DNA of 41,202 nt from the IMG/VR virus record IMGVR_UViG_3300036768_001066; one strand, written 5' to 3'. The stretch is from a virus (lineage: Duplodnaviria > Heunggongvirae > Uroviricota > Caudoviricetes). The translations under genes and the position numbers were made by a program. Of the stretch, positions 18,598-39,764 are shown piece by piece (the stretch's first letter is position 1; each line of letters opens with the position of its first letter). The notes beneath the pieces were generated by a model. The model made no database searches. It saw nothing but the letters and a program-made list of their open reading frames with translations, and was not told the origin of the DNA.

Positions 18598-20712
18598 ATG
18601 TCAAAGAAAGCAGTAGAACATTTATTCACCGGAGCCACGACGCCTATAACGTCGTACGACTCCACCAAGACCAACGTTGGTACGCAGATCAGGCAATACA
18701 CGGGATCCAACCCTACCGACAAGTTTGCAGGTCCATCGATAATAGGTGTGGCAAGACCAATGGAACAATCCACGGCGATACCGGGGATGTTCCCGCACGT
18801 AATAAACTGTGACACGAATACCGATTACGTGTTCCTTGCCGATAACGCCGCTGCCGCTGCAACGAGAAGGATAATTATGTATGAGTACAACAAGGTCACG
18901 TCAATGTTCAACTGGAGGGGTTTCATAACTCTGACATATCCAACCGCGACCGCGCATACCATAAGGGGGTTCAGGATGATATGCGAGTCGTATACAACTG
19001 GTACAGTATCTGTATCAGGCACGGCCGTGACCGGAAGCGGATCTGCCTGGCTAACTGATAGGATGAGCGTAGGATGCCGAATTGGATTCGGGTCCACCGA
19101 TCCGACTGCGATAACCACGTGGTACGAAATCTCGGCCATCGGCGGCGATACTTCCATAACGTTAACGACCTCTGCGGGAACTATACCAGGTGGAACTGCA
19201 TACGTAATACAAGACTTGATGTGTGTGACGTCTACGACTAATGCGACTGCGACCAATGGTGGTCTGTTCGTCACAAAGGGATTGAGAATAGAAAATTTTA
19301 CGACGTCCGGTACCACGATACCGGCCGCGACCACAGTCGATAATATAAGGGCTGTGTACTGGCTCGCCGACGCGGCGGTGGTCACTAATACTACAGCTGC
19401 AGGATCCGCCATAGGACAGAGGACTTCTTGGACATCTCAGTATGTATACGTACTGAATGCGACAGGATCTATCTGCTTCGTGTATAACATAAGAATGGCG
19501 CTAACGCTTGCCGCGGGCAAGGATACTACTACTAACATTATTAAGACTGGTAACCAAGTTCTGACAGGAACCATGTCGCAGATCAATAACGGCAGGATTG
19601 GTACGTTATCTCACGGTCCTGGAAGTGGGGTTGAGAGCTTATATTTTGTAACCACCACAAGGGTTTACAGGTGTGCGTTGACTAACATAACCAACGGTAG
19701 CACAACCTGGACCTCGGACGTAATGGTCGAGGTCCCGCCGGGCGGGACTGCAACATTCGCAGCGACATCCGCGTTGTCTTCTGTAGAGATCTCGAGCTTG
19801 ATAGACAGACTCGTGATAATGACAACTGGTGCTACAAGTACCCGCAGCTACGTCACCACATATAACACAATATCGTCGCAGTTCGAGTTGATATTCCTCG
19901 CAGACGACAGACAGCTCGACCAGTCTACGGCGGATTCCACTATAGTACCACACCCTTCAATACAGGCTTCCACTTTTTCTATTTGGTCGGAGGGGGGAAT
20001 ACTGTATATGGCACGTCACAGTACGGCAGCAACGGCCAATCAGATATACACCATACCGATAGAGGCACACTGGACATACACGTCAACCACTAACCAGGTC
20101 CTAATAACACCTGCCATGGACACGTCGAACGCCACCAAGCTGTATAGGGTTTACGTGAACGAGATTAAGAAGATGGGTAATGATTATCTCGTTAAGAATC
20201 CGGAGCCGTTCAAGACTTACGTCAGGACTGCCGGAATATCTGATAACTCTGGTACGTGGACTCTACTTGACGATAGTGGCACGCTAACATCAATATCGCC
20301 GTCAACGTCTATACAGTTTAAGTTCGAATTTAGAGTGCTTGGCGAGTCGTGCATACCCGCGAGGATAATGGGACTTACGGTGGTTTACGAGGACGACACA
20401 ACTGATTCTCATTACACGCCGTCAGTGGCCAAGTCAAGCGTGACATCTAACACCTTCGGGTACAGGCAATCGTCCCTATGGGGCGGCACAATACCTGACC
20501 TGAGGATAAGGCTGTACAACGCGGTATCGGGCGTGCCGATAGTCGACGACACAGTGACGGCTTCCGCCTTCGGAACGTGGCAGTACTCGACCGACGGCAA
20601 CGTATGGAACGCATGGAGCTCTTCGGCAGATGTCGTGGGCAACTACATCCGTTACGTCGCTACGTCGCTGCCGGGTTCAATTAAAGTGAGGGCGCTGCTT
20701 ACGCAGGCGTAA
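18598..20712 (+). CDS. Large Thr/Gly-rich beta-structured virion/tail protein
   Basis: 704 aa, T/G/S/A-rich, inside the fibre cluster. Confidence 0.75.
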   Translation: MSKKAVEHLFTGATTPITSYDSTKTNVGTQIRQYTGSNPTDKFAGPSIIGVARPMEQSTAIPGMFPHVINCDTNTDYVFLADNAAAAATRRIIMYEYNKVTSMFNWRGFITLTYPTATAHTIRGFRMICESYTTGTVSVSGTAVTGSGSAWLTDRMSVGCRIGFGSTDPTAITTWYEISAIGGDTSITLTTSAGTIPGGTAYVIQDLMCVTSTTNATATNGGLFVTKGLRIENFTTSGTTIPAATTVDNIRAVYWLADAAVVTNTTAAGSAIGQRTSWTSQYVYVLNATGSICFVYNIRMALTLAAGKDTTTNIIKTGNQVLTGTMSQINNGRIGTLSHGPGSGVESLYFVTTTRVYRCALTNITNGSTTWTSDVMVEVPPGGTATFAATSALSSVEISSLIDRLVIMTTGATSTRSYVTTYNTISSQFELIFLADDRQLDQSTADSTIVPHPSIQASTFSIWSEGGILYMARHSTAATANQIYTIPIEAHWTYTSTTNQVLITPAMDTSNATKLYRVYVNEIKKMGNDYLVKNPEPFKTYVRTAGISDNSGTWTLLDDSGTLTSISPSTSIQFKFEFRVLGESCIPARIMGLTVVYEDDTTDSHYTPSVAKSSVTSNTFGYRQSSLWGGTIPDLRIRLYNAVSGVPIVDDTVTASAFGTWQYSTDGNVWNAWSSSADVVGNYIRYVATSLPGSIKVRALLTQA

Positions 20713-35406: not shown

Positions 35407-36834
35407 ATGTTATATTTATTATTGTTCGTCGCTTTCCTGGCCGTAGTTGCCATACGCGACATAATGCAAAACAGACACGCAATAACCCACAACTTCCCGG
35501 TGATAGGACACATCCGTTATCTGTTCGAGAAGATAGGTCCAGAAATCCGGCAGTACTTCATCGCCAACAATAGAGAGGAGCTTCCATTCTCGAGGCGACA
35601 CAGAGCTTGGATATATGCCTCGGCGAAGGATGAGAACAACCTCACAGGGTTCGGTACAGACATGGACTTCAACGAACCCGGTCACATAATCATAAAGCAC
35701 AAGATGATGCCGGTGCACTCCGACAACATCGGTCACCTGCCATGCAAGAAACAGCTCGGCAAAGGCAAGCGTGCAAAACCATACACACCAAACTCTATAG
35801 TGAACATATCTGGCATGAGCTTCGGCGCGTTATCGGCAAAGGCTGTAGAGTCACTTAACGGCGGAGCTAAGCTCGCTGGTTGTTACCACAACACTGGGGA
35901 GGGCGGATTGTCAGTGTATCACAAGCAAGGGGCTGACGTGGTGTTCCAGTTCGGAACTGGATACTTCGGAGTGTGCGACGAGAAGGGTAAGTTCTCGCTC
36001 GAGAAGCTGAAGAAACTCGTGCAAGATAATCCCTGCATAAAGGCAATCGAGATAAAGCTGTCCCAGGGCGCGAAGCCCGGCAAGGGAGGAATTCTGCCGG
36101 CCGCGAAGATGACACAGGAGATCGCAGACGCCAGGGGCATCGAAATGGGCAAGGCCGCCGTGTCGCCAAGCACTCACAGCGCGTTCAAGGACGTGACAAG
36201 CATGATAAACTTTATCGAAGAGATAGCAAACGCAACCGGTCTGCCTGTCGGTATAAAGGCGGCGATTGGAAGCGTAAAAGACTGGGAGGAGCTCGCCACG
36301 CAAATGGCCATGTCCGGTTTCGGCCCGGATTTCATCACAATAGACGGCGGCGAGGGCGGCACTGGTGCAGCACCACCATCATTCACAGACCACCTGTCTC
36401 TGCCGTTCAACGAGGCAATACACAGCATCATAAAAATATTCAGAGTTTACCCGGCGCTCGACAACGTAGTGTTCATCGGGTCTGGCAAGCTCGGGCTTCC
36501 AGCCAATGCCATAAAGGCATTTGCGCTCGGCTGTGATATGGTTAACGTCGGTAGGGAAGCGCTGATGTCCATCGGTTGTATCCAGGCACAGGTTTGTCAC
36601 ACGAACAGGTGTCCGTCTGGCGTGGCCACACAGAACAAGTGGCTGCAGAACGGCATAGACCCGACGCTCAAATCCGTCCGCGCAGCTAACTACATCAAGC
36701 AGCTGCGCAAAGAGATCCACGAGATGTCCAACGCTTGCGGGTACCACCACCCTTCCGAGTTCAAGAAGGAGGACCTGCTCGTCGCCTGTGGCGACCACAG
36801 GCGATTCATAACTTTGAAAGAGATGTACGCATAA
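35407..36834 (+). CDS. FMN-binding glutamate synthase family protein (GltB2/YerD-like)
   Basis: SGMSFGALS, NTGEGG, EIKLSQGAKPGKGG, DGGEGGTGAAP, CIQAQVCHTNRCPSGV (3Fe-4S); N-terminal TM helix. Confidence 0.95.
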   Translation: MLYLLLFVAFLAVVAIRDIMQNRHAITHNFPVIGHIRYLFEKIGPEIRQYFIANNREELPFSRRHRAWIYASAKDENNLTGFGTDMDFNEPGHIIIKHKMMPVHSDNIGHLPCKKQLGKGKRAKPYTPNSIVNISGMSFGALSAKAVESLNGGAKLAGCYHNTGEGGLSVYHKQGADVVFQFGTGYFGVCDEKGKFSLEKLKKLVQDNPCIKAIEIKLSQGAKPGKGGILPAAKMTQEIADARGIEMGKAAVSPSTHSAFKDVTSMINFIEEIANATGLPVGIKAAIGSVKDWEELATQMAMSGFGPDFITIDGGEGGTGAAPPSFTDHLSLPFNEAIHSIIKIFRVYPALDNVVFIGSGKLGLPANAIKAFALGCDMVNVGREALMSIGCIQAQVCHTNRCPSGVATQNKWLQNGIDPTLKSVRAANYIKQLRKEIHEMSNACGYHHPSEFKKEDLLVACGDHRRFITLKEMYA

Positions 36835-36844
36835 TGACAATACA

Positions 36845-37552
36845 ATGAAAATAGAATCAAAATTTTGGCCGCTGTTCGTCCAGGCGACGTTCGGCGTTAA
36901 ACCCGAAACGCTCTTCTGGTATGTGATGGCCTGTATAACGGCCGTGATAATACTGCCAATATCGTGGATCGGCGTTCTCGTAAACTTCCTGACCATGAAA
37001 AGCCGGAGAGACGAAATGAGCAAGCCGTTCCCACTGCTGCTGTCCATATTCGCCATGCCGATAGCTTGCGCCACCGGTGTCTGCATCTGGGATGTGTTCT
37101 TTGCCGAACCATCATTTGCTGGTTGGTGGGACAAGCTGTTGTTCGCTTGGGCGCTCGGGTTTCCCGGACTGATAGCCGTTACGGTAGCTCTGTTTGTCGG
37201 AGCCATAGTTGCCGCAGCTATAGTGTACTCGGTGATACTGTTTAAAGAGTGGGCCGCCAAGCGCATACAATTCGGCACGAGGGTGACCTACACGGTTGAC
37301 GACCATTCGTACAACTTGAACTTATCGAGCGCCTCGTCCTTGGAAACATCGCCCTCGAGAGTGTCGCCAAGTATGGCCACCGTGCCATTGGTGACACCCA
37401 TGCCGAGGAACGCCTTTGCGAGCACCAGGTTGGACAGATGGCCAACGTGCAGGTGCTTGTTCATGTTCGGGCTGAACCCGTCCATGTACTGGAACTTCCC
37501 CGCCGGCTCGAACACCTCATCGATGTCCTTGTCGATGTACACATTCGTATAA
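36845..37552 (+). CDS. Polytopic membrane protein; beyond ~37310 the ORF runs through the antisense of the ArgRS remnant
   Basis: Four or more hydrophobic segments up to KEWAAKR, then a low-complexity tail that is the reverse complement of the ArgRS-like gene. Confidence 0.65.
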   Translation: MKIESKFWPLFVQATFGVKPETLFWYVMACITAVIILPISWIGVLVNFLTMKSRRDEMSKPFPLLLSIFAMPIACATGVCIWDVFFAEPSFAGWWDKLLFAWALGFPGLIAVTVALFVGAIVAAAIVYSVILFKEWAAKRIQFGTRVTYTVDDHSYNLNLSSASSLETSPSRVSPSMATVPLVTPMPRNAFASTRLDRWPTCRCLFMFGLNPSMYWNFPAGSNTSSMSLSMYTFV

Positions 37553-37693
37553 GGACCAACTTTTTCTACCTCGAAACCGTGCGCTGCAATCCATGTGGAC
37601 ACCTCAGCATCCGGTTCCCCGAATATGCACACTCCGAACTTGGAATTGACTTCCTTAGGGATCTGTTTTACTTTTTTTGATGTTCAGTTTCAT
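37288..37693 (-). pseudogene. argS: Arginyl-tRNA synthetase-like gene, frameshifted near the start and truncated after the HIGH region
   Basis: DGFSPNMNKHLHVGHLSNLVLA (class I HIGH motif in the ArgRS context SPN..K.LHVGH). ATG 37693 is out of frame by one extra A in an A7 run; the ORF ends ~45 aa after HVGH. Confidence 0.75.
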
Positions 37694-37707
37694 AACTTTA
37701 CTTTTTG

Positions 37708-37780
37708 TGATCCCGACTGGATTCGAACCAGTGACCCTTTGCTTAGAAGGCAAATGCTCTATCCGCTGAGCTACGGGACC
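37708..37780 (-). tRNA. tRNA-Arg(UCU)
   Basis: Acceptor GGTCCCG/CGGGATC; anticodon stem TTTGC/GCAAA with loop CTTCTAA; T-loop TTCGAAT; no encoded CCA. Confidence 0.95.
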
Positions 37781-37842
37781 GTATCTTAATTCATATTCTG
37801 CCCTATCGGTTCCGAAGCCGACGGGACTACTGAGGCATTTTG

Positions 37843-37916
37843 TACACGCGAAAGGATTCGAACCCCCAGCCTCCTGATCCGTAGTCAGGTGATCTATCCA
37901 GTTGATCTACGCGTGC
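37843..37916 (-). tRNA. tRNA-Arg(ACG)
   Basis: Acceptor GCACGCG/CGCGTGT; stem CCTGA/TCAGG with loop CTACGGA; D-loop CTGGATA; wobble-rich T-stem. Confidence 0.9.
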
Positions 37917-37982
37917 ATTCTCTAACGCCCGGGTGGTTTAATGTCCGGTAACAATGCAAGCCATCCCGCATATTGACTGGCT

Positions 37983-38035
37983 TGGTAGTCGCTTCCAGAC
38001 TCGAACTGGGGACCAACCAACTGAGCTAAGCGACT
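37983..38035 (-). ncRNA. 53-nt tRNA-like element lacking the anticodon arm
   Basis: AGTCGCT-TAGCTCAGTTGGTT-GGTC-CCCAG-TTCGAGT-CTGGA-AGCGACT-A-CCA: perfect acceptor stem, T-arm and CCA, but no 3' D-stem or anticodon arm. Confidence 0.8.
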
Positions 38036-38040
38036 ATTTG

Positions 38041-38114
38041 TTGGTGCGGTGGGAGTCGAACCCACGATTTCCTCCGTATCAGGGAGGTGCCTTAACCAGC
38101 TTGGTCACACACCA
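38041..38114 (-). tRNA. tRNA-Ile(GAU)
   Basis: Acceptor TGGTGTG/CGCACCA with A73; stem CCTCC/GGAGG with loop CTGATAC; T-arm GTGGG-TTCGACT-CCCAC. Confidence 0.9.
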
Positions 38115-38118
38115 GTGT

Positions 38119-38152
38119 AAAATAAAAAACCCGGACGATTAGGTCCGGGTTT
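38119..38152 (-). terminator. Intrinsic terminator immediately upstream of the tRNA cluster (candidate attenuator)
   Basis: AAACCCGGAC-CTAATC-GTCCGGGTTT plus TTTATTTT, ending 5 nt before tRNA-Ile. Confidence 0.85.
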
Positions 38153-38178
38153 CTTGTCCCAAAAGAAAAGCGATGTTA

Positions 38179-38259
38179 TCAGCTTACGATTGGACATAAT
38201 CCGGACAGGACGTCTGAGCGCCTTCTGCTAATTCGAACTATGTTAATCATTTGCTTCAT
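38179..38259 (-). promoter_or_regulatory. Candidate leader peptide MKQMINIVRISRRRSDVLSGLCPIVS* overlapping an antiterminator strand
   Basis: Ile codons ATT/ATA/ATT and Arg codons CGA/AGA/AGG/CGC are clustered. GATTATGTCC (38201-38192) is 9/10 complementary to GGACCTAATC in the terminator. Confidence 0.7.
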
Positions 38260-38266
38260 CGTACAT

Positions 38267-38274
38267 TATATATC
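38267..38274 (-). promoter_or_regulatory. GATATATA box upstream of the leader
   Basis: Exact motif 7 nt upstream of the leader ATG. Confidence 0.55.
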
Positions 38275-38319
38275 TGCGGCGCGTTTTGTTTCGGCTGCAA
38301 TTACTTTGTTTTTTCTTTA

Positions 38320-38568
38320 TTATGCTTTCGGGCGTGCCTCATTAACGATGATGGAACGACCACCAAACTCAGAACCGTTAAGAGCTGCGATAGCCTTTGT
38401 TGCGGCTTCATCGTCAGACATCTCTACGAACCCATATCCCTTGCTACGGTTGGTTTCGCGGTCCTTGATAATTTTGGCAGAGGTTACCTCACCATGCTTT
38501 TCGAAAGCGGCCTGAAGCTCGCTCTCAGTCAGCTTGAAAGGCAAGCTGCTTACGAAGATGTTTTTCAT
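38320..38568 (-). CDS. Single-RRM RNA-binding protein
   Basis: RNP2 IFVSSL and RNP1 KGYGFVEM; TATCTTTG box at 38598-38605 (minus). Confidence 0.95.
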   Translation of the reverse strand: MKNIFVSSLPFKLTESELQAAFEKHGEVTSAKIIKDRETNRSKGYGFVEMSDDEAATKAIAALNGSEFGGRSIIVNEARPKA

Positions 38569-38641
38569 TTTACTTACAGTTTTATTAGTTACAGATACAA
38601 AGATAACACAATTATTCTAACCGTACGCTACCGTCAGAAAA

Positions 38642-38890
38642 CTATTTTCCCTCCCGCAGCCTCTTGTTTTCCTTGTGCTCTCTTATGGGGTTTATCACCC
38701 AGGCGTACGCAATCATCACGAGTGTCAGCCCCGTTATGTATGCGAGGGCGGGCATCGCTGTCCAGAAAGCCCAGGATCCTTCCACGTTATTGTCTATGGC
38801 CATGAACACGGCGAACCACACGAACGATATTAAAAGCCACCCGAGCTTCGTGTGCGTCATCCAGTATAGCGCGTCCTTTATCTTATTCAT
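38642..38890 (-). CDS. Small membrane protein
   Basis: Two hydrophobic segments; basic C-terminus. Confidence 0.7.
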   Translation of the reverse strand: MNKIKDALYWMTHTKLGWLLISFVWFAVFMAIDNNVEGSWAFWTAMPALAYITGLTLVMIAYAWVINPIREHKENKRLREGK

Positions 38891-38963
38891 GTAATGATTA
38901 TTTTATGAGTAGCTCCTGTGCTTCCATCCGTGTTCTGCCGTGAGAGTGGTTCAGGATTCCCGG

Positions 38964-39764
38964 TTAGTTCATATTTTTATCTCCGGCTTTGCGCGCCTTG
39001 TACATCTCGTCCGTTATTATACGGATCATGTTATCCTGGCCGATGTCCTGCAGCGCGAGCTTTAGCTTGTCCAGGTGCGGCGGGAAGTCCTCAGGAGTAA
39101 TTATTTCGCCGGCAACGAGTGCACGGAAGTCATCCTCGGTCAATGAGATGTGAGTCTCGTCTGCCTTGTCATCCTTAAGCTCGGACTCATTTGTCCACTC
39201 AGGTAAGTCTGCCTTATTAAGAGGGAACGGCCTCTTGGGTATGTACTCCTGTATCCCGGCCCATACCGCACGCTTGATATCGTCGCTGATCTCTGTTATG
39301 CCATCGACCCACCATGCGGCTGATTGTCTCGTGGTGCCACCCATCTTGGTCGCAAACTTCTCTATAAAGTAGTCGATCTGCTCTTGGTCCTTCTTGGAAA
39401 AATCACCGAATACTGCCTTTTTATGTGAGTAATTCTCAAAGGTCATGAGGTTCTTCATCCCACTCTCGAACACACCCATCTTCTTGTCTGTATCAACATC
39501 CCTCTTAAGATTTGCCGCGAGCTCTGTGGCGTAGTGCTTCGGGTAGAACTCCTTCAGCACCTTGACCGCCTTCTCGAGGTCGTTGTTGTGTATGAGCAGG
39601 ACGCGCTTGCCGATGTATGAGCTGTTGCCCGCCATGGACCTTACGTTCCTTCTCTTGAGGGTGCTCGTCATTTCCTGAACCTCGGATCTGCCGCCGTTGT
39701 AGTTGCCTACGTACTCGCCGGACCTCTTGTAGTTCTCCCCTTGGAATGCTTTTCTTGTTGCCAT
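38964..39764 (-). CDS. Putative head-internal multi-module protein with an internal MKNLMTFENY motif
   Basis: Co-transcribed with 39767-40246; FES and NES sites between modules. Confidence 0.65.
   Translation of the reverse strand: MATRKAFQGENYKRSGEYVGNYNGGRSEVQEMTSTLKRRNVRSMAGNSSYIGKRVLLIHNNDLEKAVKVLKEFYPKHYATELAANLKRDVDTDKKMGVFESGMKNLMTFENYSHKKAVFGDFSKKDQEQIDYFIEKFATKMGGTTRQSAAWWVDGITEISDDIKRAVWAGIQEYIPKRPFPLNKADLPEWTNESELKDDKADETHISLTEDDFRALVAGEIITPEDFPPHLDKLKLALQDIGQDNMIRIITDEMYKARKAGDKNMN

Follow-up and report, generated by a model that had tools for sequence, protein, structure and literature searches.

Introduction

The closest described systems to the element reported here are the amino-acid attenuators of enterobacteria (trpL, hisL, leuL, pheL, thrL, ilvL), in which a short open reading frame (ORF) with a run of control codons is combined with mutually exclusive 1:2, 2:3 and 3:4 pairings and with an intrinsic terminator just before the regulated genes, the position of the ribosome reporting the availability of charged tRNA. 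Leader-peptide attenuators of this type, such as those of trp and his, read the decoding rate and hence charged tRNA, a missing tRNA being indistinguishable from an uncharged one. Here we analyzed 41,202 nucleotides of DNA (the window in the following) from a Caudoviricetes virus, IMG/VR record IMGVR_UViG_3300036768_001066 of 373,759 bp (G000), in which a leader of comparable anatomy precedes a small operon of tRNA genes on the minus strand. Sequence comparison makes it very probable that this element is a ribosome-mediated (leader-peptide) transcription attenuator of the phage tRNA operon, one of at least seven in G000. The decisive evidence for the window unit is its being one of seven such units in G000 and one of twelve across three phages. 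The window corresponds to bases 49295-90496 of the record in reverse orientation (G000 genome position = 90497 minus window position). The record, which stems from an uncultured phage, has a GC content of 50% and encodes 49 tRNAs, two of which carry a CUA anticodon.

With the enterobacterial attenuators the phage units share the short ORF with its control-codon run, the exclusive pairings, the terminator directly ahead of the genes and, as a prediction, the ribosome position as report on charged tRNA; several of them are multivalent, as are thrL and ilvL. In contrast to the enterobacterial systems, the phage units would regulate the tRNAs themselves and not biosynthetic enzymes, so that the loop closes on tRNA supply. 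They are moreover phage-encoded and repeated at seven operons with different codon sets, and the ribosome-free state is predicted to result in read-through instead of termination in five of the seven. A leader-peptide attenuator before a gene of the translation apparatus, and not before a biosynthetic operon, is the E. coli pheST attenuator (pheM leader), which controls phenylalanyl-tRNA synthetase. Its parallel in the window is an arginyl-tRNA synthetase (ArgRS)-like gene downstream of the unit, but this gene is a truncated remnant and the main cargo consists of tRNA genes. T-box riboswitches likewise are cis-acting sensors of tRNA status that operate a terminator/antiterminator switch before translation-related genes. 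Whereas T-boxes bind uncharged tRNA directly and without translation, the phage units would use the ribosome as sensor. No T-box match was obtained in Rfam, neither for window positions 36000-39500 (E up to 1) nor for the loci of the seven units (E up to 0.1), and no specifier structure was found. Among the Rfam leader families, the window yields only Thr_leader with 21.2 bits (gathering threshold 55, E = 0.88), located on the terminator hairpin alone, and none is reported in the loci of the seven units (E up to 0.1).

Phage tRNA genes have been known for more than 50 years and their purpose is still debated; to our knowledge, the control of their expression has hardly been addressed. A full-text literature search found no description of leader-peptide control of tRNA genes, in line with an earlier model-made reading of the window from its letters alone (the sequence-only reading), which knew of no description of the arrangement for phage tRNA genes. 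Phage tRNA arrays have been discussed as a means of codon compensation or as replacement of host tRNAs cut by defense nucleases (eLife 2023, PMC10264068; PARIS, Nature 2024, PMC11464382). In the passages available, both papers share cargo and setting with the present case, namely large phages with many tRNA genes, but they concern the purpose of the tRNAs and not a demand-sensing control of transcription. The huge-phage paper of Al-Shayeb et al. 2020 (PMC7162821) contains no words beginning with attenuat-, leader or terminator. As far as can be told, the class of mechanism is known, and the novelty lies in tRNA genes as its target, in the modular repetition and in the phage setting.

Results and Discussion

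Anatomy and predicted switching of the window unit

From the promoter-like site to the last tRNA gene, the window unit is composed of the following features (window positions).

38286..38294, minus strand: putative upstream promoter element CCGAAACAA, read directly, which marks the tRNA-operon class of promoter-like sites
38267..38274, minus strand: GATATATA box, a promoter-like or initiator motif, from the genome-wide motif count
38179..38259, minus strand: leader ORF with ATG, 26 codons plus TGA, encoding MKQMINIVRISRRRSDVLSGLCPIVS, from the ORF listing
38218..38247, minus strand: control-codon run ATT aac ATA gtt CGA ATT agc AGA AGG CGC (Ile x3, Arg x4), read directly
38181..38255, minus strand: long imperfect hairpin, segments 1:2, predicted to join the control-codon region to the antiterminator strand in the ribosome-free state, present in the minimum-free-energy and the centroid structure
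38192..38206, minus strand: antiterminator strand GTCCGGATTATGTCC, segment 2, from duplex energy against shuffles
38143..38161, minus strand: terminator 5' arm TGGGACAAGAAACCCGGAC, segment 3, from folding and direct reading
38118..38142, minus strand: terminator loop CTAATC, then 3' arm and U-tract GTCCGGGTTTTTTATTTTA, segment 4, from folding
38040..38114, minus strand: tRNA-Ile(GAU), the first gene that would be regulated (ARAGORN; Rfam tRNA 58.1 bits)
37842..37916, minus strand: tRNA-Arg(ACG) (ARAGORN; Rfam 58.9 bits)
37707..37780, minus strand: tRNA-Arg(UCU) (ARAGORN; Rfam 72.2 bits)

Box, ORF, hairpin and tRNA genes all lie on the minus strand where the sequence-only reading had placed them. 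The leader contains the Ile codons ATT, ATA, ATT and ATC and the Arg codons CGA, AGA, AGG and CGC, so that Ile and Arg make up 8 of 25 residues (P = 0.004 in a binomial test based on the amino-acid usage of the phage itself). Seven of these eight codons are readable by the downstream anticodons GAU, ACG (as ICG) and UCU. It had been pointed out before that the four Arg codons are exactly those of the two encoded tRNA-Arg. This holds, but it is a weak argument, given that both anticodons together cover five of the six Arg codons.

The terminator hairpin with its U-tract extends from 38161 to 38118 and has a 13-bp core stem (-20.3 kcal/mol) and the tail UUUUUUAUUUU, which ends 3-5 nt before tRNA-Ile. 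A terminator had thus been correctly recognized at this place, although its core as predicted by RNAfold is 13 bp long and not 10 bp as first read. A simple terminator scanner reported nothing at the hairpin, likely because its maximal stem absorbs the T-run; this null result was set aside, as RNAfold shows the hairpin clearly. Folding of the entire leader by RNAfold results in a long hairpin within the ORF and the 13-bp terminator, with z = -3.8 to -4.4 compared to dinucleotide shuffles. The antiterminator strand GTCCGGATTATGTCC is located 10-24 nt ahead of the stop codon and forms a predicted duplex of -17.3 kcal/mol with the terminator 5' arm, compared to -9.4 +/- 2.2 kcal/mol for shuffles (p = 0.004). 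It includes GATTATGTCC (38201-38192), whose pairing with GGACCTAATC (38146-38137) at nine of ten positions is borne out by direct reading. The predicted optimum lies in this same leader segment but in another register, namely GUCCGG:CCGGAC (38206-38201 with 38148-38143) plus UGUCC:GGACA.

To account for the ribosome, as the sequence-only reading had suggested, each RNA was folded up to the terminator loop with the ribosome footprint masked. For the window unit (unit D below), 2 of the 19 nt of the terminator 5' arm are paired upstream when no ribosome is present, 12-13 of 19 nt with a ribosome stall at codon 5, 12 or 14, and again 2 of 19 nt with a ribosome positioned at the stop codon. A stall is thus predicted to sequester the arm, while a ribosome at the stop codon, or none at all, frees it. 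These masked-fold states point to a full trp-like design of unit D with 1:2, 2:3 and 3:4 pairings.

Seven units with one layout in G000

Seven tRNA clusters of G000, including that of the window, share one layout, which consists of the box, an ATG-initiated ORF of 22-30 codons, a spacer of 16-29 nt and a GC hairpin with U-tract. In all seven units, hairpin and U-tract end 2-10 nt before the first tRNA. The leaders and the tRNA genes that follow them are listed below.

Unit A, NYQ leader MKKYNAYQQYNQNQNQSSGLSVISPFEK (MKKYNAYQQYNQNQNQ...): Asn, Asn, Tyr, Tyr, Gln, Gln, Gln
Unit B, FPV leader MKKMINIVLVFPVFVSFSGSGRVLR: Phe, Pro, Val, Val
Unit C, HW leader MKNLIHIHHIWQLSQGPAVYSV: Trp, His, His
Unit D, IR leader MKQMINIVRISRRRSDVLSGLCPIVS, the window unit: Ile, Arg, Arg
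Unit E, DACE leader MKTNSTYLFMLTAADCAEEDNIGLVELTMR: Asp, Ala, Cys, Glu, Glu
Unit F, SL leader MKKNLSLSSLLSLSLLSGKRDSWAMS (...LSLSSLLSLSLLS...): Ser, Ser, Leu, Leu, Leu, Ser
Unit G, KMGT leader MFATITKGMYTGTTFTTKKDGKVFSGICES: Lys, Met, Gly, Met, Gly, Gly, Thr, Thr, Lys, Lys, Lys, Met

When the leaders are assigned to the clusters in all 5040 possible ways, the true assignment yields 73 matched residues and represents the sole maximum (mean 25.7, next-best value 64), with binomial P values for the single units ranging from 3e-7 to 0.11. Under strict wobble rules, 64 of these 73 control codons are decodable by an anticodon of the unit's own cluster. In all seven units, the ORF furthermore carries in its 3' portion a strand that is complementary to the 5' arm of the unit's own terminator; 0-21 nt separate the end of this strand from the stop codon. 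Compared to 1000 dinucleotide shuffles of the upstream sequence, the antiterminator duplexes of units A to G show p values of 0.002, 0.002, 0.13, 0.004, 0.10, 0.009 and 0.04, respectively (Fisher combined p ~1e-7). The masked folds are clean in units B, C, D, F and G: the arm is sequestered when a ribosome stalls within the control run and is released when one occupies the stop codon.

A genome-wide scan for the box, followed after 90-270 nt by a strong terminator, returned eight units, six of which are tRNA leaders; the Ser/Leu leader was missed due to its variant box and T-run. No such unit is found before several single tRNAs of G000 or before both of its suppressor-containing pairs.

Units in other phages and co-variation

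Five further units were detected in two distant huge phages of ~30% GC. The first, IMGVR_UViG_3300033121_001869 (G001; 182 kb, 30% GC), has nothing but the ArgRS-like protein in common with G000 (~51% identity). The second is the GenBank uncultured phage LR745206.1 with 634,780 bp, which contributes three units. By its size it may belong to the Mahaphage clade, for which Al-Shayeb et al. 2020 (PMC7162821) predict Bacteroidetes hosts.

G001, leader MNLNMNNLRTLTVVINTLCINRT...: Leu, Leu, Arg, Asn, Asn, Ile, Thr
G001, leader MNKVINIVNQVQPQVVVDQPD...: Pro, then past a gap Asp x3, His, Pro, Gln x3
LR745206.1, leader MTTMNLNMTMNLTLNVVNITLCNIRPT...: a 19-tRNA cluster of Asn, Arg, Leu, Val, Ile, Thr and Met
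LR745206.1, leader MKTINVNIAPVNPQPQDQDP...: Pro, Asp x4, Pro, Gln x3
LR745206.1, leader MTTNSTHKNFSKSHKWFS...: His, Phe, His, Phe, Trp, Lys x4, Arg, Ser

Pooling all 12 units, the amino-acid match between leader and downstream tRNAs amounts to 155, compared to 68.5 +/- 12.3 for permuted assignments (maximum 135), and none of 500,000 permutations reaches the true value. Likewise, the summed duplex energy between each leader and its own terminator arm is -149.5 kcal/mol, compared to -97.1 +/- 8.2 kcal/mol for permutations, again with none of 500,000 reaching it. As the terminator sequences differ between the units, this specificity for the own arm amounts to a co-variation of two strands. Both results concern expectations raised by the sequence-only reading, namely that leaders upstream of tRNA clusters should track the tRNAs behind them, which is now seen for six more clusters of G000 and five units in two other phages, and that the pairings should co-vary, which is reflected in the preference of each leader for its own arm.

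Searches for closer relatives of the window unit gave little. Using the back-translated motif M(K/N)x(M/V)INIV, we obtained 40 loci in IMG/VR, with tRNAs downstream only at the already known G001 unit; the exact terminator sequence of the window has no match in IMG/VR, and blastn of the window region against GenBank phages returned matches to tRNAs only. The neighboring 266-aa protein is matched neither in IMG/VR nor in metagenome contigs, and the 5' half of tRNA-Ile finds no match in metagenome contigs. Since no close relative of G000 was found by these searches, there is no orthologue of the exact window leader for comparison. In the stretches fetched around 13 ArgRS-like loci from IMG/VR, the RRM gene that precedes the window unit and the window leader are found in none, and an attenuator unit is present at only one (L006).

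The promoter-like box

The box GATATATA occurs in 33 + 34 copies in G000 (67 sites), compared to ~11 expected from base composition, and is thus ~6-fold enriched. Copies of GATATATA(A) are nearly all intergenic, and many lie just past a terminator and 3-35 nt ahead of an ATG. In front of ordinary G000 genes, the distance to the ATG is often only 3-6 nt, which implies very short or absent 5' leaders that lack a Shine-Dalgarno sequence. The combination of GAAACAA, a gap of 2-26 nt and NNTATATA is found at nine sites in G000, eight of which are located within ~550 nt upstream of a tRNA cluster. A pattern search of IMG/VR for GAAACAA...GATATATARRATATAA gave two matches, both on AT-rich contigs without tRNAs nearby, and these were treated as chance matches.

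The leaders of LR745206.1 are preceded by a related box, AATATATA(A/C), seen as AATATATAAGAA(A/C)A. In both LR745206.1 and G001, AATATATAAGAAA or a similar box is present at the equivalent position. A shorter form, AATATATAC, directly adjoins one further tRNA cluster of LR745206.1 (L084:29350-29870; Met, Glu x3, Tyr, Glu, Tyr, Ile, Gly, Met, Gly), where it lies 18 nt before the first tRNA, with neither leader nor terminator in between. This leaderless cluster supports the box as promoter, and it implies that attenuated and unattenuated tRNA operons coexist in one genome. We regard the GATATATA box as promoter-like and as the putative promoter of the tRNA operons.

Proposed mechanism and alternative explanations

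Anatomy, codon-tRNA match, mutually exclusive pairings, and the recurrence and co-variation in 12 units fit a leader-peptide attenuator and thus support the trp/his-type logic that had been proposed for these phage tRNA genes. According to this mechanism, transcription would start at or near the CCGAAACAA...GATATATA site, and the 26-codon leader would be translated while RNA polymerase advances, with both processes kinetically coupled. At scarce charged tRNA-Ile or tRNA-Arg, the ribosome would stall in I-N-I-V-R-I-S-R-R-R; the strand GUCCGGAUUAUGUCC would then be free to pair with the terminator 5' arm, which would result in read-through into tRNA-Ile, tRNA-Arg(ACG) and tRNA-Arg(UCU). With fast decoding, the ribosome would reach the stop codon and cover GUCCGGAUUAUGUCC, whereupon the 13-bp terminator would form 3 nt ahead of tRNA-Ile and transcription would end. 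If no ribosome is loaded, GUCCGGAUUAUGUCC would be held in the long 1:2 hairpin and the terminator would form before tRNA-Ile as well. The predicted outcome is a negative feedback, set by set, on the supply of the operon's own tRNAs, and the phage probably makes each tRNA set only when ribosomes read its codons slowly. In nature, such a shortage may arise from differing codon usage, from shut-off of the host, from tRNA cleavage by its nucleases or from poor charging; a link to anticodon nucleases or Cas13, as had been envisaged before, is speculation.

Several observations weigh against the attenuator. The start codon of the window leader is uncertain, since it lacks a Shine-Dalgarno sequence and a second ATG is present at the end of the box in another frame. 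Taken alone, the window unit is only modestly enriched for Ile and Arg, and the encoded tRNA-Ile(GAU) does not decode its ATA codon. Across the seven G000 units, 9 of the 73 control codons are unread by annotated anticodons of their cluster (ATA, TCA x5, GCG x2, TTA); an Ala-like gene whose anticodon loop has 8 nt may serve GCG x2, and a degenerate Leu(UAA)-like gene may serve TTA, but only if those genes work. The leaders favor rarer, A/T-ending synonyms in control and non-control codons alike, so that this bias is not diagnostic. The antiterminator p values of units C (0.13) and E (0.10) are weak on their own, and units A and E remain ambiguous in the masked folds because a single ribosome at the stop codon leaves their antiterminator strand uncovered. 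At equilibrium, the terminator is favored in six of seven units even with a stalled ribosome, and hence switching would have to rely on kinetics, as it does in trp. Finally, the design is not universal, as most ArgRS-like loci of related phages show no unit in the fetched stretch.

A tentative alternative, to which we give clearly less weight, retains the mechanism but takes amino-acid starvation or poor charging as the signal, or regards the units simply as a timer by which tRNA genes are transcribed early and switched off once phage tRNAs have accumulated. Because an attenuator cannot separate missing from uncharged tRNA, its design leaves room for such a signal. Moreover, G000 has no tRNA-Ser(UGA), and no phage tRNA reads TCA, which occurs five times in the Ser/Leu leader, so that host tRNA or charging must account for part of the signal. 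Additional tRNA does not relieve amino-acid starvation, however, and would provide no useful feedback in this case, while the 64 control codons that are read by the operons' own tRNAs fit an autoregulation of tRNA supply.

It is rather improbable that the units are real and selected but sense nothing, acting instead as leaky constitutive terminators or as processing or stability elements, with the ORF encoding a small peptide, loading ribosomes or protecting the transcript. The strength of the terminators at equilibrium would agree with such a role, and so would the leader N-termini, which are conserved across units and phages (MK(K/Q)MINIV in the window leader and leader B of G000, MNKVINIV in G001) and could reflect a peptide or initiation function. 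Left without explanation, however, are the leader contents that track the downstream tRNAs in 12 units and the strand within the ORF that is complementary to the unit's own terminator arm. Least credible by far is a chance arrangement of an accidental short ORF in a 205-nt spacer, the terminator of the RRM gene, and tRNAs transcribed by read-through or from an unseen promoter: the modest enrichment of the window unit, the ease with which short ORFs and 9/10 pairings are found in many spacers and the missing orthologue of the exact leader would be compatible with it, but a promoter-like box separates the RRM gene from the ORF, and the design recurs with matched composition at seven G000 tRNA clusters (1 in 5040 and 0 in 500,000 permutations).

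Returning to the attenuator, we consider it likely that huge phages run a demand-driven tRNA supply, with a codon-matched switch per operon and transcription of only those sets that are short. Such a system would also serve as alarm and repair when host tRNAs run low or are cut by tRNA-targeting defenses. If true, large phages would regulate their tRNA supply set by set and on demand by a sensor written in codons, and classical attenuation would extend from amino-acid biosynthesis to the tRNA genes themselves. From the sequence alone, the leaders would then also reveal which tRNA genes belong to a common operon and which codons count as limiting for a phage. Codon compensation and replacement of defense-cut tRNAs become testable against each other by simple reporter fusions, and the compact (~150 nt), modular units could serve as synthetic sensors of decoding capacity for chosen codons.

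The ArgRS-like remnant and neighboring features

Around and within the tRNA operon, the following further features are found.

38320..38568, minus strand: RRM-domain protein gene, 82 aa, single RRM (PF00076, E = 6e-24)
37983..38034, minus strand: tRNA-like element without anticodon arm, read directly
37288..37693, minus strand: ArgRS-like gene remnant with HVGH motif, from similarity to N-termini of IMG/VR relatives

The ArgRS-like ORF of the window (37632-37288) matches only residues 7-125 of a family of ~396 aa and then diverges. The ATG of the gene at 37693 is out of frame across an A7 run (frameshift, 37678-37672), and the remainder of the gene is found nowhere in the G000 genome. Among the relatives in 13 IMG/VR loci, 12 are 394-404 aa long with HVGH and KMSS(R/S) and one is interrupted; to the N-termini of the full-length relatives (12 of the 13 loci) the window copy is 49-54% identical. 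One full-length relative matches PF00750, the ArgRS catalytic domain, with 25.9 bits (cut-off 23.3). The window copy retains HVGH, ends after ~125 family residues and has no Pfam match, and it does not represent a complete synthetase. The earlier proposal that the attenuator also switches on ArgRS is thus doubtful, the gene being a frameshifted and truncated remnant. Extending the ORF through its TAG stop was tried and rejected: the frame stays open, but the extension has neither a family match nor any likeness to the relatives and is antisense to plus-strand genes. On the plus strand, a membrane-protein ORF at 36845-37552 has ~145 N-terminal residues that look real, followed by ~90 further codons antisense to the remnant. 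Remnant and overrunning ORF together suggest a recent rearrangement at this convergent junction.

The tRNA-like element is positioned between tRNA-Ile and tRNA-Arg(ACG). By direct reading its acceptor stem is perfect, and it also retains the T arm, an encoded CCA and, of the D arm, the 5' side; no tRNA is called at 37983-38034 by either ARAGORN or Rfam. If derived from tRNA-Ile2(CAU), which is speculation, its former role would have included decoding of the leader's ATA codon. The gene of the single-RRM RNA-binding protein sits directly upstream of the promoter-like site of the tRNA operon. Farther away, a plus-strand gene at 35407-36834 encodes a 475-aa protein that has a hydrophobic segment at its N-terminus and contains a glutamate-synthase FMN domain (PF01645, E = 1.8e-76).

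Other tRNA genes of G000

Both CUA-anticodon tRNA genes of G000 (amber suppressor type; 19877-19952 and 42187-42258 in genome numbering) lie outside the window, and each is paired with another tRNA (Cys and Leu, respectively) with no attenuator unit ahead. Leader A ends with TAG, directly followed by TAA. At some stage, TAG may be decoded as a sense codon in this phage.

Inside the Ser/Leu cluster, two degenerate tRNA-like genes are present at L085:871-940 and L085:1421-1503 (G000 294970-295039 and 295520-295602), both missed by ARAGORN at default settings. In one of them, which is Leu(CAG)-like, no T arm can be recognized; the other, Leu(UAA)-like, encodes a CCA and has an odd D arm. Throughout the G000 clusters and the loci L003, L004, L006 and L011, many tRNAs for Asn, Tyr, Gln, His, Val, Lys, Gly, Thr, Met and Cys are 80-93 nt long, owing to an extra arm or insert.

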